Shown: piece by piece, positions 1,886 to 27,319 of the stretch
Position numbering within the stretch: the first letter of the stretch is position 1
Layout: each line of letters begins with the position of its first letter
From: an uncultured bacterium
GTDB taxonomy: Bacteria; Patescibacteriota; Andersenbacteria; UBA10190; CAIZMI01
Assembly (NCBI GenBank): GCA_903934015.1
Contig: CAIZMI010000044.1
Location: 5,027 to 69,026 of the forward strand
Length of the DNA: 64,000 nucleotides
Direction of reading: 5' to 3'
Position numbers and translations under genes: made by a program
The notes under the pieces: generated by a model
Databases searched by the model: none
Told to the model about the DNA's origin: nothing
Seen by the model: the letters and a program-made list of their open reading frames with translations, nothing else

Positions 1886-3162
1886 ATCATTCATTATTTG
1901 AAATCCACCGCGCCACTGCGCCATCTGGCTTGCGGCTTTTAGCGTTGCCGATGGGTGGCACCGGCACTGTTACCGTTATGGCTTTTGTGGCCACCGGTTC
2001 CCGGTACGAAGATGCTGAAGAAGCGGGAGTTTCGCATTTTTTAGAGCACTTATTTTTTAAGGGTTCGAAAAAACGACCAACAACATTACAAATCTCAGAA
2101 GCCCTAGATGAAGTGGGTGGAGAGTTTAATGCGTTTACGTCGAAAGAAATGACCGCATTTTATGCCAAGGCATCTGCAAAACATACAAAGTTGTTGTTGG
2201 ATGTTTTGGGTGATATGTTGATCAACCCACTTTTCCAGCAAAAAGAAATCGATCGGGAACGTGGCGTAGTAATAGAAGAAATGAATATGTATGAAGATTC
2301 GCCACAGGATTCTATTGGGGAGCAATTTGAGCTTCAACTGTTTGGTGAACATGATTTGGCGCGAAAAATTATCGGTACGAAAGAAATTATTAGCACAATT
2401 ACCAAGAAACGCATTGTGAAATATCGTAATCAGCAGTACGGCGCGCCAAATATGGTTGTTTGTATTGCGGGAAATATTGAACCAGGGAAAGCTTTGGCAA
2501 TGCTTAAGCGACAATTTAGTGGTTTGCCAAAGCAAGCACCGGTAAAAATCAGAGGATTTGGTGGCGTTTGGGGAACAGATTTGGTTTCACTTAAAGTGAA
2601 AAAGACAGATCAAGCACATGTGATTATTGGTGGACGAGGAACTTCCTTGGTGGATGATGATCGTTGCGCCGTTGATTTGCTAAGTACAATTCTTGGTGGC
2701 AGTATGTCGAGCCGTTTGTTTATTGAGGTGCGCGAGAGACGTGGGTTAGCGTATTCTGTTCACACGTCGGCTGAACATTTTGTTGATACCGGTTATATTG
2801 CGACGCAAATCGGTGTTGATCCGGGTAATGTTGAAAAGGCTTTGTTGGTAATATTGAAAGAATATAAAAAAATTCGTGAAATTCCTATTGTTGCCGGAGA
2901 GCTTAAAAAAGCCAAGGAAAATATTAAGGGGCACCTCTTGATTCGTTTGGAATCAACAAACGCGGTAGCTCAGTTTGTTGGCGGTCAAGAGACACTGACA
3001 GGACGTATTTTGTCTCTGGAGGATGTGTTTAAAAGTTTTGACGCGGTAACACCAGCTGATATTCAACGCGTCGCAAAAAAATATCTCGCGCCGGAATTTT
3101 TGAGAATTGCGGCCATTATGCCGAATGATGTTAAAAATGAATTAACTAAATTACTTATATAA
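1882..3162 (+). CDS. M16 (pitrilysin/insulinase) family zinc peptidase
   Basis: HFLEHLFFKGS inverted zinc motif HxxEH, 426 aa. Overlaps the glyQS stop by 4 nt. Confidence 0.8.
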   Translation: MNHSLFEIHRATAPSGLRLLALPMGGTGTVTVMAFVATGSRYEDAEEAGVSHFLEHLFFKGSKKRPTTLQISEALDEVGGEFNAFTSKEMTAFYAKASAKHTKLLLDVLGDMLINPLFQQKEIDRERGVVIEEMNMYEDSPQDSIGEQFELQLFGEHDLARKIIGTKEIISTITKKRIVKYRNQQYGAPNMVVCIAGNIEPGKALAMLKRQFSGLPKQAPVKIRGFGGVWGTDLVSLKVKKTDQAHVIIGGRGTSLVDDDRCAVDLLSTILGGSMSSRLFIEVRERRGLAYSVHTSAEHFVDTGYIATQIGVDPGNVEKALLVILKEYKKIREIPIVAGELKKAKENIKGHLLIRLESTNAVAQFVGGQETLTGRILSLEDVFKSFDAVTPADIQRVAKKYLAPEFLRIAAIMPNDVKNELTKLLI

Positions 3163-3167
3163 AAAGT

Positions 3168-4214
3168 ATGAGAACGCAGAATTTTATGACGATTGATATT
3201 TCAGCGAAAACGCTTTTTCGTCTGTTATTTTTTATTCTTGCTGTATGGTTTCTTTGGTTTATTCGTGACCTTTTGTTGATTTTATTGGTGGCTGTTTTGA
3301 TTGCTTCGGCATTAGAGCCTCTTGCGATACGTCTTCAGCGTTTTCGAATACCGCGTGCAATTTCCGTTTTGACGGCCTATGCTTTTTTTGTCGGTTTGTT
3401 GATTGTTGCAGTAACAATTCTTGTCCCGCCTTTAATTGCTGAAATTCAGTCGTTAACGGTAAATTTGCCCGTGATATACACGCAATTGGTGTCTATGTTG
3501 GGAAGAGCCGGAGTGGCCTTTGGTGCTTCGGATTTAGTTCCATCGCTCCAAAAAGGGTTATTGGATGTCGGTCAATTTTTAGCGCAAACCTCTAATGGTA
3601 TTTTTGCCACGACAAAAACCGTTTTTGGTAGTCTCTTCTCAATATTGCTTACTTTTGTAATTTCTTTTTACCTAGTTATTTCCAGGGACAGTCTTTATGC
3701 GTTCGTTTGTTCGGTTGTTCCGTTGGAGCATCGTCCCTACACGATAAAAATTATAAAAAAAGCACAGCAGAAAATTGGTCATTGGCTTCTGGCTCAAATT
3801 GTGCTGGGATTGATTATGGGCACGCTTGTCTTTGTGTGTTTGTGGGCATTAGGTGTTCCATATGCTTTGGCGATTGCGTTGCTAGCCTTTTTTGCCGAAT
3901 TTGTTCCAGTCATTGGCCCAACACTCTCTGCTATTCCGGCTGTTCTTCTTGGTTTTACTAACTCTTGGATTGTTGGATTAATCGTCCTAGTTATGTATTT
4001 GATTATTCATCAAATTGAATCAAATTTGCTGGTGCCAAACATTATGCGTCGCGCGGTTGGACTGAACCCTCTTACAACAATTTTGGCGGTAATAATTGGA
4101 GCAAAGCTGGCAGGCGTTATTGGTGTCGTGTTGGCTGTACCGATTGCGACAATTATTTCATTGTTTATTACCGATTTGTTGCCGAACGAGAAGGAAGAAG
4201 AACTACCGGCGTAG
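3168..4214 (+). CDS. AI-2E/PerM (UPF0118) family transporter-like membrane protein
   Basis: About 8 predicted TM helices, 348 aa, typical PerM topology. Confidence 0.6.
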   Translation: MRTQNFMTIDISAKTLFRLLFFILAVWFLWFIRDLLLILLVAVLIASALEPLAIRLQRFRIPRAISVLTAYAFFVGLLIVAVTILVPPLIAEIQSLTVNLPVIYTQLVSMLGRAGVAFGASDLVPSLQKGLLDVGQFLAQTSNGIFATTKTVFGSLFSILLTFVISFYLVISRDSLYAFVCSVVPLEHRPYTIKIIKKAQQKIGHWLLAQIVLGLIMGTLVFVCLWALGVPYALAIALLAFFAEFVPVIGPTLSAIPAVLLGFTNSWIVGLIVLVMYLIIHQIESNLLVPNIMRRAVGLNPLTTILAVIIGAKLAGVIGVVLAVPIATIISLFITDLLPNEKEEELPA

Positions 4215-7950: not shown

Positions 7951-8259
7951 TTATCCCTTGAAATCCTTTAGATCATCTTGTAACTTCGCAATGCCCTCCG
8001 GGCCTTCTTGCATTCGTTTTTCAATTGTTGCCCGAGCGGACGCGGGGAGCATTTCCAGTAATCCCTGCATTAAGTCTTCCGGCAGTACTTCGGCGTGACC
8101 AAGCTCCAGGGCTTTCTTTTCGGCAGCACTTCGCAACTTTCCTTTAACCATACCAATCATCATTTTTGGTCCGGGAAATTGAGCGATTGCTTGCTCCAGC
8201 GCACCTTCTGCTTCCACGCTCCACTTGATGTGTTCTGTTGATTTATTGAGTCCAAACAT
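7951..8259 (-). CDS. small hypothetical protein, PCP_red-like (PF08369-like) domain suspected
   Basis: W..EAE..L..IP..MMIGMVKGKLR..AEKKA.E.G pattern resembles PCP_red. Call is from memory only. Confidence 0.35.
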   Translation of the reverse strand: MFGLNKSTEHIKWSVEAEGALEQAIAQFPGPKMMIGMVKGKLRSAAEKKALELGHAEVLPEDLMQGLLEMLPASARATIEKRMQEGPEGIAKLQDDLKDFKG

Positions 8260-8278
8260 GGGAAAAGGATAGCATAAA

Positions 8279-10027
8279 CTAGATTTTTGTGTACATTTCG
8301 TGACCCGGCAGTTTGTCATGGCGGATTTTGTCGATAGGACTGTTCCAGTGGTGGTCCTCTATGTAGGAGATAAGAAGTTCCTGATTTGGTTCGATTTTTT
8401 CCTCCTCGCATCGACGCTGGAAAAATATCCCGATTCTTTCTCTTGCCTCATTAATTGATAGTGTTTTTGCTTTTATACTGGCGATTAGTATTCCTTCATA
8501 TTCTTCCATTTCCTCCCAAATTTTCAACAAAGCCTCGTCAGGTCGTTTTCGTTCAAGTTCGGCTTCTTCCGCGATAATTGCTTTTTGTTCTTTATCTATT
8601 TCTCGTAAGCCAGGCACAAGAAGTCCGGTTTCGTTTTCTTTCAAAAATTTATAATAACGATCAAGCAAAATTTTACGTTTTTCGCTCGGCTCTTCGCCAT
8701 CATTCGGAAATTCAATGCCATCCAGGTCTGTTAGCAAATCCGCTTCCTCTTCAAACGGCATTCGTGTAAGTTGGTCGGACCAGTCTTCAAGAGGAATCTG
8801 GGCGAGCACCCATCGAAACGTTTCATACCTTTTTTTTAAATTCCGTCTTGCGTAAAGCGCTGCCGGATAGTTCGCTTCTCGACAAGCCTCATATAAGTTC
8901 TCTTTGTAACGCGAATGTAATCTTTCATATGCCGAAGAAGTTACGGATAATCCGGCGATTTTAAAGTAGTCGTACACATCCATTCTTTCGAGAAGTTCGT
9001 TTTTGTAAGAGAAGGGGTCATATGATGTTGTCTTGTAATTGGCCAAAAGTTCGTCTTTTGCACGTCCAAGAGCATAGCTTAATAGGCGATCTTCTAATCG
9101 TGCTCGCTCCGCTTTTTGTTTTTTCTGGTCTTCTGTTGGTTGATCAAGCACTACATCGTCTGAATTAAGAAGTTCTATCTCGGTTATCTTTAGTGCGGGG
9201 GAGTGACTCCAAACCAGACGACGGTGTTCTGCTTCAGGTTTCTTTATTACGGAATTTTTTAAAATTGAGTTTTCAGCGTGGCCTACTTCATGCTTTTTGA
9301 CACTTGAATCTTGATTGGCATTAACGGCGATAAGGGGAAACGCGAGTTTGTCAATTGTTTGATTTGCCTGATGGAACCCTCCAACATTGTCTTTTGGATC
9401 AACGCGTTTATAATCTTCCGCATCGGAAAAATTCATTATCAAGGCCAGGGGGTTGGTTGTATCTAGTGCAATTTTGCCTTTTGGTTTTTCGGGTGTCTTT
9501 GCTAAATATGTAGTAAACAATCTTTGGCCAAGCCAGTGGCTTACATCGATATTTTGTTTTTTCAAGTGTTTGGAGTGAGCGATAAGGAGCTTTACTTGTT
9601 CACTCATTCTTTGATCAATATAATCTTGTGAATGTCCTTTTTCTTTTAACGCTTTTTCGTAGGCGTCTAGACCATCTGCTTGTATAATCCAATCTTCTCG
9701 AATAATTGAATCGCGTGCCCATGTGTTTACCGCTAAAATTTTTTCGCGTGTTTCCAGTAATTTGTCGATAAAAGCATCTACCGCATCGGGATGAACAATC
9801 CTGTCTGATTGTTTTGCGACTTCTAAAAATTCCTCACGCGTAATAGCGGGGTTTTTCATAATTGTATCGACAAAAAGTTGCGCGCACTGGGCGTTGTCAA
9901 ATAAAGCCTCCATACGAAGAAGAGCGGAAGCATCTCTCTTTTCTGCTTTTTCTTCAGCAGTTTCATGTGGCATTTTTCTAACACCTTCGATTTTGTCGTC
10001 GTATTTTGGCGTTCGCTCCATGGACAT
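8279..10027 (-). CDS. large hypothetical protein with HEVGH (HExxH) motif
   Basis: About 580 aa, alpha-rich and charged. Single HExxH. Track start is TTG 10063; internal ATG used. Confidence 0.45.
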   Translation of the reverse strand: MSMERTPKYDDKIEGVRKMPHETAEEKAEKRDASALLRMEALFDNAQCAQLFVDTIMKNPAITREEFLEVAKQSDRIVHPDAVDAFIDKLLETREKILAVNTWARDSIIREDWIIQADGLDAYEKALKEKGHSQDYIDQRMSEQVKLLIAHSKHLKKQNIDVSHWLGQRLFTTYLAKTPEKPKGKIALDTTNPLALIMNFSDAEDYKRVDPKDNVGGFHQANQTIDKLAFPLIAVNANQDSSVKKHEVGHAENSILKNSVIKKPEAEHRRLVWSHSPALKITEIELLNSDDVVLDQPTEDQKKQKAERARLEDRLLSYALGRAKDELLANYKTTSYDPFSYKNELLERMDVYDYFKIAGLSVTSSAYERLHSRYKENLYEACREANYPAALYARRNLKKRYETFRWVLAQIPLEDWSDQLTRMPFEEEADLLTDLDGIEFPNDGEEPSEKRKILLDRYYKFLKENETGLLVPGLREIDKEQKAIIAEEAELERKRPDEALLKIWEEMEEYEGILIASIKAKTLSINEARERIGIFFQRRCEEEKIEPNQELLISYIEDHHWNSPIDKIRHDKLPGHEMYTKI

Positions 10028-14230: not shown

Positions 14231-14257
14231 TGGCAATTCATGAATTGCCCCTACGTG
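14231..14257. repeat. palindromic element GGCAATTCATGAATTGCCCCTACGTG (family 2)
   Basis: Perfect 18-nt palindrome. Copies at 17395-17420 and a variant at 24821-24863. Confidence 0.75.
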
Positions 14258-17340: not shown

Positions 17341-17394
17341 AATGGTGATGAAAGAAAAAAATTGTAAAACTATCGGGTACACCCGGTCGTTGTA

Positions 17395-17420
17395 GGGGCA
17401 ATTCATGAATTGCCCCTACG
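17395..17420. repeat. palindromic element GGGGCAATTCATGAATTGCCCCTACG (family 2)
   Basis: Between the leuS stop and the next gene start. Confidence 0.75.
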
Positions 17421-21696: not shown

Positions 21697-22365
21697 ATGC
21701 GGAAAGATATTCTAACTAATAGTGAAGTTTACCATGTGATGAATAAAAGTATCGCTGGATTTAAAATATTTCAGTCAGAGAAGGACTTTTTGCATATGAG
21801 AAACTTGATTAGGTATTACACATCTGCGGGTGTCCGACAAAAGTATTCACAATTTGTACGTGATGTAAATATTCACAAAGATGATATTGAAGAAGAAATC
21901 AATAAACATTTATTGCAGAAAGAAAAAACAGTGCAAATAATTTGTTATTGTTTAATGCCTACGCATTTTCATGTGGTAATAAAACAATTACAGGATCATG
22001 GTATCGAAAAATTCATGTCGGATGTTTCCAATGCATATACACGTCATGTGAATATAAAAATTGAACGAAATGGGCCATTGTGGGTAGGGCGTTTTCAGAG
22101 TGTACTTGTTGATAATGACGATTATCTTACCCATTTAACGCGGTATATCCATCTAAATCCTGTTTCTGCTGGATTAGTTAAAAAAGCCTCTGGTTGGCCC
22201 AATTCTTCTTTTTTGGAGTATGTAAATCGTGATAAGGTGAGGTTTCCGGTGTGCGATTATTCAGGCTTTATTTCTTTTTCGGAAAAACAATACGAAAAAT
22301 TTACAAACGATCACGCGGATTATCAAAAGGAGCTTACACGAATAAAAGCTCTTTGTTTAGAATAA
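21697..22365 (+). CDS. REP-associated tyrosine transposase (RAYT; IS200-like HuH-Y1 family)
   Basis: HuH motif CYCLMPTHFHVVI and Tyr motif RYIHLNPVSAGLVKKASGWPNSSF, which align with E. coli YafM VVLPEHMHCIW / YIYINPVKHGWV..WPFSTF. Start at ATG 21697; track start GTG 21661 lies inside the REP. Confidence 0.8.
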   Translation: MRKDILTNSEVYHVMNKSIAGFKIFQSEKDFLHMRNLIRYYTSAGVRQKYSQFVRDVNIHKDDIEEEINKHLLQKEKTVQIICYCLMPTHFHVVIKQLQDHGIEKFMSDVSNAYTRHVNIKIERNGPLWVGRFQSVLVDNDDYLTHLTRYIHLNPVSAGLVKKASGWPNSSFLEYVNRDKVRFPVCDYSGFISFSEKQYEKFTNDHADYQKELTRIKALCLE

Positions 22366-22382
22366 GGTTTATTACCTTGCAC

Positions 22383-22423
22383 CACCTACGAGGTGGAGCA
22401 AGGTTGCTCCACCTCGTAGGTGG
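22383..22423. repeat. inverted REP doublet CCACCTACGAGGTGG-AGCAAGGTTGCT-CCACCTCGTAGGTGG (BIME-like)
   Basis: 20-2-20 near-perfect palindrome 18 nt after the RAYT stop. Confidence 0.8.
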
Positions 22424-22439
22424 TAAGCAGGTCGTAGAA

Positions 22440-23810
22440 TTATTTGCCGCGGCCTACCGAATGATACAAGAAACCTTTTTCTTCCATTTCTTTCGGATTA
22501 AACATGTTTCGGCCGTCGATGATTAGTGGCTGGTGAAGGGAAGCGTGAACCTTTTTCAAATCGGTTTTTTTAAATTCATCCCAGTCGGTAACGATAACCA
22601 GAGCATCGGCATTAATTGTGGCATCCATTGCAGATTTTACATAAGTGATATTTTCATCGCCGAGCACTTCGTGTGCCTTTTCCATTGCTTGCGGATCATA
22701 AGCTTTAATAATCGCACCTTCACCACGCAGGTGATTGATAACCGTCACGGCAGGCGCGCTGCGCATATCATCAGTATTTGGTTTGAAGGAGAGTCCCCAA
22801 ATGGCAATTGTCTTTCCTTTGACAATCCAAAGCGCTTGCTCAATTTTCTTAATGAAAATCGCTTTTGCTTCCTCATTAATTTTCTCAACCGCTTTTAAAA
22901 TTCCAAAATCGTAATTTATTTCTTCCGCAATCTTAACGAACGCCGAGACATCTTTTGGAAAACAGCTTCCGCCGTATCCGACACCGGCTTTCAAGAAAGA
23001 AGAACCAATGCGTTTATCTAAACCCATACCGTAGGTTACTTCTTCAACATTAGCATTTGTTAATTCACAAATTGCGGCCAAGGCGTTGGCGAAAGATATC
23101 TTTGTGGCTAAGAAAGAATTGGAAGCGTGTTTGATCAGTTCGGCGGAATTAATATCGGTTGCGATAAATGGCGCTTTGATTGGCGCGTAAATTTCACGCA
23201 TAATTTTTTCCGCGCGTTCGTTTTCGGCACCGATAACAATGCGATCGGGGTTTAAGAAATCGTAGACAGCCGTACCTTCGCGTAAAAACTCCGGGTTACT
23301 AACAACGTCGAATTCAATGCCGTGTGGGTTGTAGGAGCGCAAAGTTTCTAGAACTTTTTCACCTGTTTGCACAGGCACAGTGCTTTTGTCGACAACAACT
23401 TTGTATTCGGTGGCCACCTCAGCAATTTGGCGGGCAGCGTTTGCAACATAAGACAAGTCCGCTTTTCCGTCCGGTCGTGGTGGGGTATTAACTGCAATAA
23501 AAATAACCTCTGTATTTTTTACGGCTTCCGGCAGATTAGTAGTAAACTCGAGGCGTTTTGCCTTGATATTTTTGGCAATAAGTTCCTCAATCCCCGGTTC
23601 ATAAATCGGGCTGATCCCTTTCTTGAGTTTTTCGACCTTGTCGGCGTTGCGGTCGACGCAAACCACGTGGTGACCAATTTCAGCTAAACAAGCGCCAGAT
23701 ACGAGGCCTACATAGCCCGTACCAATAACGGAAATGCGCTTCCTGGCTTTAGATTCCTTTGAAACGGCCTTCTTCTCCTTTGTAACGCGTTTTATAGCAA
23801 TTTTAGTCAT
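22440..23810 (-). CDS. ugd: UDP-glucose 6-dehydrogenase (NDP-sugar dehydrogenase)
   Basis: ISVIGTGYVGLVSGACLAEIGH Rossmann motif and catalytic GGSCFPKD. Lys-rich N-terminal extension. Start at ATG 23810. Confidence 0.85.
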   Translation of the reverse strand: MTKIAIKRVTKEKKAVSKESKARKRISVIGTGYVGLVSGACLAEIGHHVVCVDRNADKVEKLKKGISPIYEPGIEELIAKNIKAKRLEFTTNLPEAVKNTEVIFIAVNTPPRPDGKADLSYVANAARQIAEVATEYKVVVDKSTVPVQTGEKVLETLRSYNPHGIEFDVVSNPEFLREGTAVYDFLNPDRIVIGAENERAEKIMREIYAPIKAPFIATDINSAELIKHASNSFLATKISFANALAAICELTNANVEEVTYGMGLDKRIGSSFLKAGVGYGGSCFPKDVSAFVKIAEEINYDFGILKAVEKINEEAKAIFIKKIEQALWIVKGKTIAIWGLSFKPNTDDMRSAPAVTVINHLRGEGAIIKAYDPQAMEKAHEVLGDENITYVKSAMDATINADALVIVTDWDEFKKTDLKKVHASLHQPLIIDGRNMFNPKEMEEKGFLYHSVGRGK

Positions 23811-23851
23811 AGGGGAAGTGTAGGGAAAAATGGCGAGTGTGACAACCAGCA

Positions 23852-23893
23852 CCGCTCACGGAGCGGAGCAACCTTGCTCCGCTCCGTGAGCGG
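23852..23893. repeat. REP-variant doublet CCGCTCACGGAGCGG-AGCAACCTTGCT-CCGCTCCGTGAGCGG
   Basis: Same architecture as the 22383 doublet (ACG loop, AGCAA-SS-TTGCT spacer) but a different stem. Confidence 0.75.
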
Positions 23894-23924
23894 ACAAAGG
23901 TTCATCGTTCTCAATTTCAGAACT

Positions 23925-24806
23925 ATGTCATACAATTCAAATATGAACGAACAAGCACCACGGATAAATCCGGACACGGAAGAACAGCCAGAAACCGGAT
24001 TGGAATTGGAAAAATTGGAAACAACAGAAACGCCGGAGATGCCAGCGGATTTTGTCGAGCCGGAAGGAAAATCGGGCGGATGGGGCGAGGTCGTAGAAAA
24101 CAAAGAGCTTGGTGTCAGATATCGCGAAAAAGTGATTGAATTGCCGAAGCATCGACAGGAAGAAACAGGGGTGAAGAGAATTCGTCGAAGGGAGATGTTA
24201 CCGCCTTTTCCGGAAGGGTTGTTATTACAAGAGGTAGACGATAAAAATCTCCAATATTGGAGTGGTGATGAGGCGTTCGATGAGGTATATAATTTTTTTA
24301 CCTCCAACGGCTACCCCTCGGAAGGTACCCTTGTTCATATTATGAATTTTATGCGAGAAAATGATCAGGAAAAAATCCAAAAAAATATTCGAGAGGGACT
24401 ATATTTTCAAGAAATTCACGCCGAAAATGAGTATGGTTTTAGATTGTGTCCCGATAGGACATATGTGGGAAAATTTACAACACCCGTTTTTGTATTTGGA
24501 AACCGCAATAGTGTTTTGAATGAATATGTTGATTCAGTGATTAATGATCCTGTGTCAGAGTGGGGTGTTGAATTTGAAGGAAAATGGGCAATACGGTTAG
24601 GAAAACATGAGTATTCATGGCCGGAAGTTAGCCATGATTTAAAAAGACTAAGAAATAGAAAACACATTGATGCGGGGGAGGTATCCCTGCCATATTTTGG
24701 TCGTCTAGAAAATTCTTCAAAACGACAGCTTCGTTGGTGTCACGCGGAATTGGCTTTGGTTCCTACCAAGCGCAGTCTGAATGTTTTGTTTTTCGAGACG
24801 GAATAA
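23925..24806 (+). CDS. hypothetical protein
   Basis: ORF track (track start 23874); acidic N-terminal region, no domain. Confidence 0.4.
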   Translation: MSYNSNMNEQAPRINPDTEEQPETGLELEKLETTETPEMPADFVEPEGKSGGWGEVVENKELGVRYREKVIELPKHRQEETGVKRIRRREMLPPFPEGLLLQEVDDKNLQYWSGDEAFDEVYNFFTSNGYPSEGTLVHIMNFMRENDQEKIQKNIREGLYFQEIHAENEYGFRLCPDRTYVGKFTTPVFVFGNRNSVLNEYVDSVINDPVSEWGVEFEGKWAIRLGKHEYSWPEVSHDLKRLRNRKHIDAGEVSLPYFGRLENSSKRQLRWCHAELALVPTKRSLNVLFFETE

Positions 24807-24820
24807 GCCAACGCGACGCG

Positions 24821-24863
24821 AGGGCAATTCATGTTCGCCAGCTGGCGAATGCCCCTACAGCGT
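24821..24863. repeat. family-2 element variant GGGCAATTCATG[TTCGCCAGCTGGCGAA]TGCCCCTACAGCG with a nested palindrome insertion
   Basis: Shares the GGGCAATTCATG...CCCCTAC flanks with the 14231 and 17395 copies. Confidence 0.6.
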
Positions 24864-24900
24864 TGAAATTTGTAGAGAGATAAGCTAACCTATTTCAAGA

Positions 24901-24983
24901 GCCGGAGTGGCGGAATGGTTTACGCGCACGACTCAAAATCGTGTGACCTTACGGTCATGTGGGTTCGACTCCCTCCTCCGGTA
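24901..24983 (+). tRNA. tRNA-Leu (anticodon CAA), type II with long variable arm
   Basis: 7-bp acceptor stem GCCGGAG/CTCCGGT(GU), anticodon stem CACGA/TCGTG with loop CTCAAAA, variable arm GACC-TTAC-GGTC, T-loop TTCGACT. Overall layout parallels E. coli tRNA-Leu. CCA is not encoded. One U-U mismatch in the T-stem. Confidence 0.8.
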
Positions 24984-24994
24984 CAATAAATATA

Positions 24995-25582
24995 ATGGAT
25001 ACAAGTACTAAACCCAATTTACGAACGCTTGCGTACGTGATTGGTGTTGGTATTGGCGACGGCAACTTATCAAATCCCAACAAAAGAGCGACGCGATTAA
25101 GGATTAGTTGTGATACAAAATATCAGGAACTGATTAGAAAAATTCAAGGGTCTATTAGGGAAATTCTACCGAATAACAAAGTTTCCATTGTAAATAGAAA
25201 CAAGAACTGTATAGATATTAGTTGTTATTCAAATATGTGGGAGGGGTGGCTTGGATGGTCCGCAGGTGGTGGCCCAAAACTTGATCAGAAGGTGAGGGTT
25301 CCTTCGTGGATTATGAAAAAAGAGGAGTTTATTATTCCTTGTTTACGTGGATTATTTGAAACGGATGGATCTGTCTATTTTGATCGTGGATATTTAATGG
25401 CAATGTTTGTGACGACGATTCCGGAATTAGCAGAGGATGTTTTGAACATGACTGCTAAAATCATGATTTCGGCCAAGATGTATGAAATTGAAAAAAAGCC
25501 ACCAAGTCACACAAGATACAATATCCGTGTTTCGAAGAATGTTTCAGATTTCGTTAATTTGATTGGAATACAAAAGAGGTAA
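24995..25582 (+). CDS. LAGLIDADG homing endonuclease (two-motif, single-chain)
   Basis: LAYVIGVGIGDGNL and LRGLFETDGSVYF motifs. Starts 12 nt after the tRNA-Leu 3' end. Track start 24959 overlaps the tRNA. Confidence 0.8.
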   Translation: MDTSTKPNLRTLAYVIGVGIGDGNLSNPNKRATRLRISCDTKYQELIRKIQGSIREILPNNKVSIVNRNKNCIDISCYSNMWEGWLGWSAGGGPKLDQKVRVPSWIMKKEEFIIPCLRGLFETDGSVYFDRGYLMAMFVTTIPELAEDVLNMTAKIMISAKMYEIEKKPPSHTRYNIRVSKNVSDFVNLIGIQKR

Positions 25583-25628
25583 ATTTGATTTTCCTTATCG
25601 ACCCTAACCATATATAATAGCAACAGTT

Positions 25629-26417
25629 ATGATAATATCCATCGTTAATCAAAAAGGTGGAGTGGGGAAAACTACCACGGCTGTTAATTTGGGAGCGGCC
25701 TTGGCCAGGGCTGGGCATCCTACATTGCTAGTTGATCTTGATCCGCAGGGAAACGCTTCCTCGGGGGTTGGAATTGGTGACGAACAGCGGTTACCGGGTA
25801 TTTATGAGCTTTTACGCGGAGAGGTAGCGGCGGATGCCGCTATGCGCCCGACGGCACAGGAAAATTATCACGTGATGCCGGCAACAGCGGATTTGGCCGG
25901 TGCTTCGGTGGAATTAATGAATGTCGATAATCGTGAATTTCGTTTAAGGGAAGTGCTTGCTCCGCTCAAAGAGCAGTATTCATATATTATTATTGACGCC
26001 CCTCCTTCATTGGGAGTTTTGACAATGAACGCCTTGGTTGCCGCTGAACGAGTCTTAATCCCCGTGCAGTGCGAATATTATGCGCTTGAGGGGCTTGGTC
26101 AGCTTCTCCAGACAATTGGTTTGGTTAAAGAGCATTTGCATCCTGAACTGGAAGTATTAGGTGCCGTATTGACGCTTTTTGATCGACGCGTAAAAGTGGC
26201 GCATGACGTGATCAAAGAAGTACGTGAACATTTTCCGGGAAAAGTATTTGAAACCGTTATTCCAAGAAATATTCGCTTAGCAGAAGCGCCATCTTATGGT
26301 AAAAATATCTTTGAGTATGACGATGCATCTCAGGGCGCGCAAACTTATCAATCGTTTGCGCAAGAAGTTCATGACACAGTAAAAAATTTAATTAATCAAC
26401 AAACACCACAAACATGA
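25629..26417 (+). CDS. parA: chromosome partitioning ATPase ParA/Soj
   Basis: Deviant Walker A KGGVGKTT, 262 aa. Confidence 0.9.
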   Translation: MIISIVNQKGGVGKTTTAVNLGAALARAGHPTLLVDLDPQGNASSGVGIGDEQRLPGIYELLRGEVAADAAMRPTAQENYHVMPATADLAGASVELMNVDNREFRLREVLAPLKEQYSYIIIDAPPSLGVLTMNALVAAERVLIPVQCEYYALEGLGQLLQTIGLVKEHLHPELEVLGAVLTLFDRRVKVAHDVIKEVREHFPGKVFETVIPRNIRLAEAPSYGKNIFEYDDASQGAQTYQSFAQEVHDTVKNLINQQTPQT

Positions 26418-27319
26418 AACCAGGAGGATTGGGAAGAGGTTTATCCGCATTAATTCCACAAAGGCGCGACGAAGGTTCTACTTTTGTTGCGACGCAACCG
26501 AGTTATTCGAGTGTTGTTAGAGCTGAAGAATCGACAGGTAATCGCGTGATGATGGTGGCGGTTGAAAAGATTGATCGTAATCCGGAACAGCCACGTCAAG
26601 ATTTTTCAGAAGCTGATTTGCAGGATTTGGCGCAATCCATTCGTGAGCATGGAATTTTACAGCCGTTATTGGTTACTAAGGATATGGATCGCTATACGCT
26701 TATTGCCGGTGAACGTCGTTTGCGAGCGTCAAAACGGGCAGGATTAAAAGAGGTACCTTGTTTGGTGCACGTTCCCGTGACTGATAAAGAACAATTAGAG
26801 TTGGCGATTATTGAAAATGTTCAGCGTGAAGATCTGAGTGTTTTGGAGCAAGCAATCGCTTATAAAAAATTGCACGACGAATTTAATATGACCCACGAAG
26901 AAATTGCGAAAGCAGTGGGTAAAGAGCGCCCTTCAATTACGAATATTATTCGTATTTTGGATTTGCCCGATGAAATGCAGAAAGCGCTGAAAGAAGGCAA
27001 AATGAACTTTGGTCAAGCCCGTAGTCTGCTTGCTGTTACCGAACCGGAAAGACAAAAAGAAGCGTTTCAAAAAATGCTAGAGGGAAAGATGAGTTCGAAG
27101 GCTCTTGAACGCGTTCAGCAAAAAACCAACGTTCAGGCGCATCAAAGGGTAATTCAAAAAGATCCGCAACTTGCCAGTTATGAAGAAGAAATGGGACGGA
27201 CTTTGGGAACACGGGTCAGGATTAAAAAAATTGGTGATTCAGGTGGAAACATTATTGTGGATTTTTACAGCGACGAAGAATTATCGGGAATTATAGAAAA
27301 AATTAATATTGGCCGATAA
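26414..27319 (+). CDS. parB: chromosome partitioning protein ParB/Spo0J
   Basis: GLGRGLSALIP N-terminal box, ParB/Sulfiredoxin and HTH regions. 4-nt overlap with parA. Confidence 0.9.
   Translation: MKPGGLGRGLSALIPQRRDEGSTFVATQPSYSSVVRAEESTGNRVMMVAVEKIDRNPEQPRQDFSEADLQDLAQSIREHGILQPLLVTKDMDRYTLIAGERRLRASKRAGLKEVPCLVHVPVTDKEQLELAIIENVQREDLSVLEQAIAYKKLHDEFNMTHEEIAKAVGKERPSITNIIRILDLPDEMQKALKEGKMNFGQARSLLAVTEPERQKEAFQKMLEGKMSSKALERVQQKTNVQAHQRVIQKDPQLASYEEEMGRTLGTRVRIKKIGDSGGNIIVDFYSDEELSGIIEKINIGR

Follow-up and report, generated by a model that had tools for sequence, protein, structure and literature searches.

A family of free-standing LAGLIDADG endonuclease genes located next to tRNA-Leu(CAA) in Patescibacteria

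The 64,000 nt stretch of the Patescibacteria contig CAIZMI010000044.1 analysed here (the window, in whose numbering all its coordinates are given) contains a double-motif LAGLIDADG homing endonuclease gene (HEG) that begins directly after the 3′ end of an intact tRNA-Leu(CAA) gene. Judged from its sequences, the gene is one of a discrete and large family, mostly from Patescibacteria (Candidate Phyla Radiation, CPR), that has the tRNA-Leu(CAA) gene as its niche. The explanation favoured here, with a probability of roughly 0.6, is that of a selfish, site-specific and free-standing HEG, tied to tRNA-Leu(CAA) and expressed from the tRNA transcript; cleavage of its target is predicted.

An earlier reading of the window, made from its letters and open reading frames (ORFs; the sequence-only reading), had described a free-standing, intact HEG located 12 nt downstream of an uninterrupted tRNA-Leu(CAA), and this description holds apart from the distance, which is corrected to 10–11 nt. 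The tRNA is detected by ARAGORN, and the Rfam tRNA model matches 24901–24983 with 55.1 bits (gathering threshold 29) over model positions 1–71, its full length. The HEG has its own start (ATG, 24995) and stop (25580–25582), with the frame remaining open back to an in-frame GTG at 24959, inside the T stem of the tRNA. Two oddities are apparent in the tRNA, a U50·U64 mismatch in the T stem (GTGGG paired with CCCTC, 24950–24965) and a G1·U72 pair (24901/24982). As the same T arm is found in the HEG-less relative L206 (loci are referred to by L numbers), these features are a trait of the lineage and not damage.

The 195 aa product matches the Pfam family LAGLIDADG_3 at 1e-10 and, with its N-terminal half, the WhiA-type LAGLIDADG family at 1.4e-7. 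The acidic residues that end the two motifs, on which the sequence-only reading had made its claim depend, are both present as aspartates, D22 (GDG, 25058–25060) and D124 (TDG, 25364–25366), and neither varies among 38 aligned homologues. The AlphaFold model based on these 38 sequences (predicted local distance difference test, pLDDT, 94.7; predicted template modelling score, pTM, 0.91) shows two alpha-beta-beta-alpha-beta-beta-alpha halves. A phmmer search against PDB sequences returned only chance matches and nothing significant, so that a search by fold was needed. The best Foldseek matches in the PDB are PI-SceI, I-DmoI, I-Tsp061I and PI-PfuI, followed by WhiA, with E values of 3e-9 to 1e-8 against PI-SceI, I-DmoI and I-Tsp061I and a probability of 1.00 against I-DmoI and PI-SceI. 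By this model, the protein belongs to the monomeric, double-motif LAGLIDADG superfamily with its fold intact, and nuclease activity is predicted. No third domain and no helix-turn-helix C-terminus are present, and the protein is not of the WhiA type. Divergence between the coding sequences of the window and its closest HEG-bearing relative, L085, amounts to 0.12 for nonsynonymous (dN) and 1.5 for synonymous (dS) sites, and the resulting dN/dS of about 0.08 shows the signature of purifying selection. The G+C content (GC) of the HEG is 37.6% vs 43.0% for the whole window.

A protein search gave 896 matches, mostly unnamed; the named ones are almost all from Patescibacteria, are 52–61% identical to the window protein and are about 190 aa long. 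Named homologues of the HEG and of ParA are the basis on which this analysis assigned the window to the phylum. Wherever their context can be read the HEGs are free-standing, and the premise of the sequence-only reading that such enzymes are rare outside introns and inteins is not borne out in view of this family alone. In a profile search over 1.84 billion cluster representatives, the core family scores above 200 bits against the family profile, with the next relatives reaching at most 120 bits and having an additional helix-turn-helix-like region at the N-terminus. When one genome per species was scanned, 171 species proved to encode a relative. The surroundings of 80 loci were retrieved, of which 77 could be judged and 3 are cut off by a contig end. 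The HEG abuts tRNA-Leu(CAA) in 73 of the 77, and all four orientations are represented: the tRNA lies directly upstream on the same strand at 70 loci (including L045, where the tRNA is cut by a run of N), and the remaining three are divergent (L001), convergent (L013) or ordered HEG-then-tRNA (L051). At four loci (L003, L056, L070 and L079) the HEG is located elsewhere. No partner tRNA other than tRNA-Leu(CAA) was found within the family across the 80 loci. The suggestion that the HEG uses the tRNA gene as its target or promoter is thereby backed across the family, although it is unproven. No relative was found on viral contigs, and a phage origin is thus unsupported. A full-text literature search, incomplete in its coverage so that absence is not proof, returned no description of a tRNA-Leu-linked LAGLIDADG family; the family is apparently undescribed.

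Public gene calls for family members often begin inside the upstream tRNA, and their N-termini are translated tRNA (GSTPSSGT, GFESHL, DSKS). Such miscalls include the proteins P0004, P0009, P0025, P0037, P0047, P0056, P0092, P0107, P0118 and P0121, and some sources name the protein WhiA. It was the tRNA-like N-termini in the alignment that pointed to an upstream tRNA in many other genomes. Both the tRNA-extended starts and the WhiA labels are systematic, correctable annotation errors.

Presence of the HEG is optional. Scanning metagenomes for a pattern of the tRNA-Leu(CAA) anticodon arm recovered 120 loci, 95 of them with enough downstream DNA; 8 of these 95 comparable loci carry the HEG and about 90% do not. 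Comparing related tRNA-Leu loci with and without the HEG, as the sequence-only reading had advised, proved informative in two places. The flanks of L024, which has the HEG, and L132, which is empty, are 80–85% identical, and the difference between the two is exactly an insert reaching from the CCA end of the tRNA to just upstream of parB. In the window's own lineage, L085 carries the HEG (81% identical) in the same place after an identical tRNA, with a UDP-glucose dehydrogenase 93% identical to that of the window. Five further relatives (L206–L210; ParA 79–87% and UDP-glucose dehydrogenase 75–88% identical to the window) keep the order NTP-transferases, UDP-glucose dehydrogenase, parA, parB, topA and dprA, lack the HEG and have tRNA-Leu(CAA) on the opposite strand. 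The HEG is thus limited, within this lineage, to the clade of the window and L085, and a polymorphism for presence or absence at a fixed site among related genomes is evident. Given that dehydrogenase identity makes the window and L085 sisters, with L209 next, and that the other relatives lack the HEG, a single gain accompanied by an inversion is most economical. No decayed HEG fragments were found in the empty loci, apart from a different LAGLIDADG gene in L134, and most weak matches there are artefacts of query N-termini made of translated tRNA.

At L059, L049, L028 and L011, a displaced 3′ fragment of tRNA-Leu(CAA), stemming from a different allele, is located 0–18 nt after the HEG stop. 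These fragments begin at tRNA positions 33, 47, 68 and 71 (z 6–24); neither displaced fragments nor inverted copies of the tRNA were found in the window. Similarity of the HEG is weakly tied to that of ParB (rho 0.28), with outliers such as HEG 93%/ParB 73% and HEG 71%/ParB 44%, and the GC of the HEG is on average 8 points below that of the flanks.

The tRNA-Leu(CAA) alleles of L206–L210, when set against the window, are mosaics of D-loop, anticodon/variable-arm and T-arm blocks, and strand flips are also seen. Agreement with the window is found in the anticodon and variable arms of L209 and not in its T arm; L206 shows the reverse. Turnover of the tRNA gene in this clade is unusually high.

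The spacing between tRNA and HEG bears on expression. The start codon follows the tRNA end called by ARAGORN by 0–5 nt in about 35 loci and by 6–22 nt in about 23, and a gap of 0–22 nt is too short to hold a promoter or a Shine-Dalgarno sequence. The 3′ strand of the tRNA is rich in pyrimidines. At eleven loci no canonical start codon follows the tRNA; in nine of these the frame is open through the T arm (binomial P of at least 9 of 11 about 0.003, calculated by hand), and in eight of the nine an in-frame GTG is located in the T stem. L007 and L024 are members in which this GTG is the only start. A fixed frame through the tRNA across the family, that is a universal fusion, was considered and rejected, since the frames split 39/31/13. 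HEG-bearing tRNAs have an encoded CCA less often (6 of 28) than HEG-less ones (41 of 81), which would fit a dependence on endonucleolytic 3′ processing. Terminator-like hairpins occur about equally often after the HEG (22 of 74 loci) and after the tRNA of empty loci (36 of 105). In the window no terminator-like site is present in 24700–25750, hence there is no such hairpin after its HEG. Taken together, these arrangements suggest that the HEG is expressed from a single tRNA-HEG transcript. The 45 nt block in front of the window tRNA is identical to L085 at 42 of 45 positions, with the sequence upstream of it not being alignable, and may be the promoter of this unit; its hexamers were read by eye, and a simple consensus promoter scan did not flag the block. 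The conserved leader and the closeness of the start codon to the tRNA favour the promoter part of what the sequence-only reading had proposed.

The mechanism envisaged is as follows. The enzyme would cut HEG-less tRNA-Leu(CAA) loci within the tRNA gene or at its edge, and recombinational repair would copy the HEG into the break, sometimes together with tRNA sequence of the donor, the conserved tRNA providing the homology. Having neither a promoter nor a ribosome-binding site of its own, the HEG would be transcribed from the tRNA promoter, and 3′ processing of the tRNA would release a leaderless or near-leaderless HEG mRNA; in some members, translation could instead begin at the GTG inside the T stem. 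In the lineage of the window, the tRNA-HEG pair would have arisen, by gain or rearrangement, in the ancestor shared by the window and L085, with inversion of the tRNA relative to the HEG-less relatives, and would have been inherited vertically since.

A bolder and quite tentative extension is that the element makes joint use of the tRNA in three ways, as target, as portable homology arm and as expression device. As target, the tRNA-Leu(CAA) gene itself would be cut. As homology arm, copies with a displaced 3′ tRNA fragment could home into any tRNA-Leu(CAA), whatever the surrounding genome. As expression device, the tRNA would give rise to a leaderless message through its 3′ processing, a bacterial form of ‘tRNA punctuation’; in members with the GTG in the T stem, one precursor could then yield either the tRNA or the endonuclease mRNA, though not both. 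Such a threefold use, if true, would explain the mosaic, orientation-flipping tRNA-Leu(CAA) alleles of close relatives.

Several observations weigh against a selfish, homing HEG. The GC of the HEG tracks that of the host from 27% to 70% (rho 0.82), the similarity among HEGs carries a host signal (partial Mantel r 0.28, p 0.001), and few copies are degraded, with only L075 and L175 being truncated. For these reasons the history of the HEG looks, from the sequences compared, mostly vertical, with losses and occasional gains, a pattern that would also be expected of a gene beneficial to its host. HEG and tRNA similarity are uncorrelated (partial Mantel r = -0.07), and co-transfer of tRNA sequence with the HEG is therefore rejected as a general feature. 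No cleavage site could be inferred, and the trailers of empty sites are not conserved. The position of the insert suggests a cut at the 3′ edge of the tRNA, and the longest displaced fragments point to a break located at the anticodon loop or before it. HEG-bearing tRNAs do not differ from HEG-less ones in T stem, T loop or variable-arm length, but only in the encoded CCA. Covariation between protein and tRNA is at the level of the null (the top mutual information of 0.69 compares with 0.66 for the 95th percentile and 0.79 for the maximum of the null). It is unexplained how a locus that carries both the HEG and an intact tRNA escapes cutting, and co-transcription and leaderless translation are inferred from sequence alone. 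Mismatches in the stems were also considered as a sign of chimeric tRNAs and rejected; they occur in 4 of 80 vs 1 of 102 tRNAs, which is not significant, and the mismatch of the window is common to the HEG-less L206.

The vertical signal raises the alternative of a domesticated LAGLIDADG protein, an old Patescibacterial gene with a host function (for example DNA binding or regulation near parAB, or one related to tRNA) that has been inherited vertically, was lost in most lineages and has ceased homing. Strong purifying selection, GC adapted to the host over 27–70% with a significant host signal, and the intactness of almost all copies agree with it, and WhiA, which is among the Foldseek matches, demonstrates that the fold can be domesticated. 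Such a history is nevertheless judged unlikely, since only about 8% of comparable loci carry the HEG and the five relatives closest to the window's lineage lack it, both catalytic aspartates are invariant, similarity among HEGs disagrees with that among ParB proteins, some copies have displaced tRNA fragments of foreign alleles behind them, and the GC of the HEG is below that of its host. The displaced fragments could also belong to a decayed integrase-type element, a phage or island inserted in tRNA-Leu(CAA), of which only the endonuclease gene beside the attachment site attL is left. tRNA genes of the tRNA-Leu(CAA) type are classic attachment sites, and tyrosine integrases use anticodon-loop and T-loop sublocations of tRNA genes. 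The anticodon loop or the T loop is indeed where the displaced 3′ fragments start, and HEG-less loci have similar fragments 30–220 nt after the tRNA. However, the insert is only a 0.6 kb ORF, the recurrent neighbour families in the 80 loci are housekeeping ones (parAB, relA, topA, miaA) with no integrase or phage family among them, and no viral contig carries a relative. Random decay is also an improbable source of ORF starts placed within 0–22 nt of the tRNA in about 60 independent lineages, and this origin is regarded as very unlikely.

The sequence-only reading had further considered a remnant of intron loss. In this alternative, widened here to inteins, the ORF was once carried by a group I intron of the tRNA, or by an intein, whose ribozyme or splicing domain was lost. 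Group I introns are hosted by tRNA-Leu genes in cyanobacteria, which makes such an origin conceivable. LAGLIDADG-encoding insertions in CPR rRNA genes (PMC11270868) lend it some further support. In the window, however, the tRNA is uninterrupted, and in every locus the ORF lies outside the tRNA. Apart from tRNAs, Rfam finds no RNA family, group I introns included, at E ≤ 1 in 23500–27000 of the window, and none at gathering score in 19 related loci. Against an intein speak the start and stop codons of the ORF itself and the Pfam result, in which LAGLIDADG families are the only matches and no Hint domain appears. An intron or intein remnant is already close to refuted.

Among known systems, SegB of phage T4 appears by analogy to be the closest functional precedent for a selfish HEG at a tRNA gene. 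SegB is a free-standing GIY-YIG homing endonuclease encoded in a tRNA gene cluster, its 27 bp site includes the T-psi-C stem-loop, and its homing takes flanking tRNA sequence along (PMC2330249). A free-standing HEG among or next to tRNA genes is common to both systems, and the same logic is proposed here for the tRNA-Leu(CAA) family. SegB differs in its GIY-YIG type, its residence in a phage genome, the lack of a single tRNA identity and the fact that it does not abut a tRNA 3′ end; furthermore, its activity has been shown by experiment, whereas the present family is known from sequence and a structural model. In CPR rRNA genes, LAGLIDADG genes are encoded in insertions, often in group I introns excised from the RNA (PMC11270868). 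Phylum, enzyme superfamily, a highly conserved RNA gene as target (a predicted one in the present family) and a patchy distribution are shared with these insertions, but they are located inside rRNA genes, whereas the present family lies outside an intact tRNA, and tRNA is unmentioned in PMC11270868. I-DmoI, I-Tsp061I and PI-SceI resemble the window protein in fold, size and the possession of two LAGLIDADG helices, each with a terminal acidic residue; they differ in coming from archaeal rRNA introns or inteins, with 14–21% identity in the matches listed. WhiA, a domesticated LAGLIDADG transcription factor that belongs to the core genes of Gram-positive bacteria, has a helix-turn-helix domain added at its C-terminus and has lost the catalytic acidic residues. 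The window protein is related to it in fold, with the WhiA-type LAGLIDADG family of Pfam matching its N-terminal half, yet has 195 aa, keeps both aspartates and is sporadic, or optional, in distribution. Mitochondrial tRNA punctuation with leaderless mRNAs has a parallel in an ORF within 0–5 nt of a tRNA 3′ end, where processing would make the 5′ end of the mRNA. To our knowledge, no bacterial chromosomal gene of this kind has been described with such punctuation; the spacing of tRNA and ORF suggests that it may operate in the tRNA-Leu-linked family.

The free-standing homing endonucleases of phages and organelles have been studied well, those of cellular bacteria much less. If the proposed mechanism is true, the family would provide a natural LAGLIDADG enzyme with its specificity aimed at a tRNA gene, as well as an example of bacterial mRNAs whose 5′ ends arise from tRNA processing and whose translation requires no Shine-Dalgarno sequence. 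It would also account for mosaicism and rearrangement of the tRNA-Leu(CAA) locus in CPR genomes and could serve as a compact marker of DNA exchange among CPR lineages.

Table 1. Features of the tRNA-HEG locus and its flank in the window
Feature	Position	Strand	Basis or remark
Promoter-like leader of the tRNA-HEG unit	24856..24900	+	TTGAAA 24863-24868, 17-nt spacer, TAACCT 24886-24891, 9 nt to tRNA 5′ end
tRNA-Leu(CAA), long variable arm, CCA not encoded	24901..24984	+	ARAGORN; Rfam tRNA model; 100% identical in L085
A/T-rich 10-nt spacer AATAAATATA, tRNA to start codon, without Shine-Dalgarno sequence	24985..24994	+	Sequence
LAGLIDADG endonuclease gene, 195 aa, double-motif, free-standing	24995..25582	+	Pfam, alignment, structure model, Foldseek
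Spacer from HEG to parA, TATAAT at 25613-25618	25583..25628	+	Sequence; partly conserved with L085
parA (25629-26417) and parB (26414-27319)	25629..27319	+	Pfam; context, outside the element

ParA or ParB adjoins the tRNA-HEG pair in about 50 of the 80 loci, the two being the usual neighbours of tRNA-Leu(CAA) in Patescibacteria, and a TATAAT or TACAAT is found at equal distance from parA in HEG-less relatives. The stretch from the UDP-glucose dehydrogenase gene to the tRNA is a variable insertion spot. It holds a 310 aa ORF (23874–24806) with no Pfam match and with palindromes on either side (23852–23893 and 24822–24854); no equivalent of this ORF is called there in L085 or L206–L210, the gap being empty or filled by other genes. 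The sequence-only reading had pointed to the palindrome upstream of the tRNA, which is real (24822–24854); a role in the element is not borne out, as the palindrome is absent from L085 and thus does not belong to the element. Two families of recurrent intergenic palindromes are present in the window. The first reads GTAGGGGCAATTCATGAATTGCCCCTAC and occurs at 14232–14249, at 17392–17419 and, as a nested variant with another palindrome, TTCGCCAGCTGGCGAA, inside it, at 24822–24854. A second family (22381–22424 and 23852–23893) is of the ...GGAGCAA/TTGCTCC... type. Just before the palindrome at 22381, at about 21697–22365, lies a gene with a weak Pfam match to Y1 transposases, which suggests a system of repeated palindromes mobilised by a Y1-type transposase, similar to repetitive extragenic palindromes (REP) and their associated tyrosine transposases (RAYT).

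Family members outside the usual setting were also seen. The HEG of L034, a locus labelled Binatia with a flank GC of 70%, has a GC of 65% and still follows tRNA-Leu(CAA). L056 (62% GC, labelled proteobacterium) holds a family member with no tRNA nearby, and L014 is labelled Omnitrophota; these labels outside CPR reflect either mislabelled bins or a gene that crosses phylum boundaries. In three members not adjacent to the tRNA, a promoter-like motif, GATTTTGAAAATAGGTGCGAGCTTGGTAAAAT, is shared in front of the ORF (L003 at about 3100–3157, L070 at about 3945–4000 and L079 at about 30–83); in L070, tRNA-Leu(CAA) is located 2.9 kb upstream. A different LAGLIDADG ORF in L134 (2752–3449; about 232 aa, with 30% identity to the family) begins 38 nt downstream of tRNA-Leu(CAA) and thus represents a second lineage in the same niche. 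In L080, the end of a distant LAGLIDADG paralogue (7965–8546, minus strand; 27% identical, 56 bits against the family profile) overlaps the start of tRNA-Tyr(GTA) on the same strand by a few nt, which hints that other tRNA genes have linked endonucleases of their own.

Rearranged copies of the tRNA are also present in HEG-less loci. A second, partial tRNA-Leu(CAA) of a different allele is located 30–120 nt downstream in L135, L197, L156, L158, L136 and L141. These partial tRNAs start near tRNA positions 22–32, with a 19–38 nt hairpin, which begins with C(C/T)TG(C/T)CC, inserted just 5′ of the anticodon loop; further hairpin inserts occur in the T loop of L197 and L136, and L141 has two partial tRNAs in tandem. 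In L086, L095, L139, L150, L192, L200, L185, L206 and L210, the tRNA is followed by short segments of 90–220 nt, each closing with a direct repeat of the tRNA 3′ end from the T loop onwards, and several of the segments also hold an inverted copy. L150 and L192 have a common motif, GGGGTACTGAA..TGTAA, just before the tRNA copy. Such a 90–220 nt segment looks like a small non-coding element or scar specific to tRNA-Leu(CAA).

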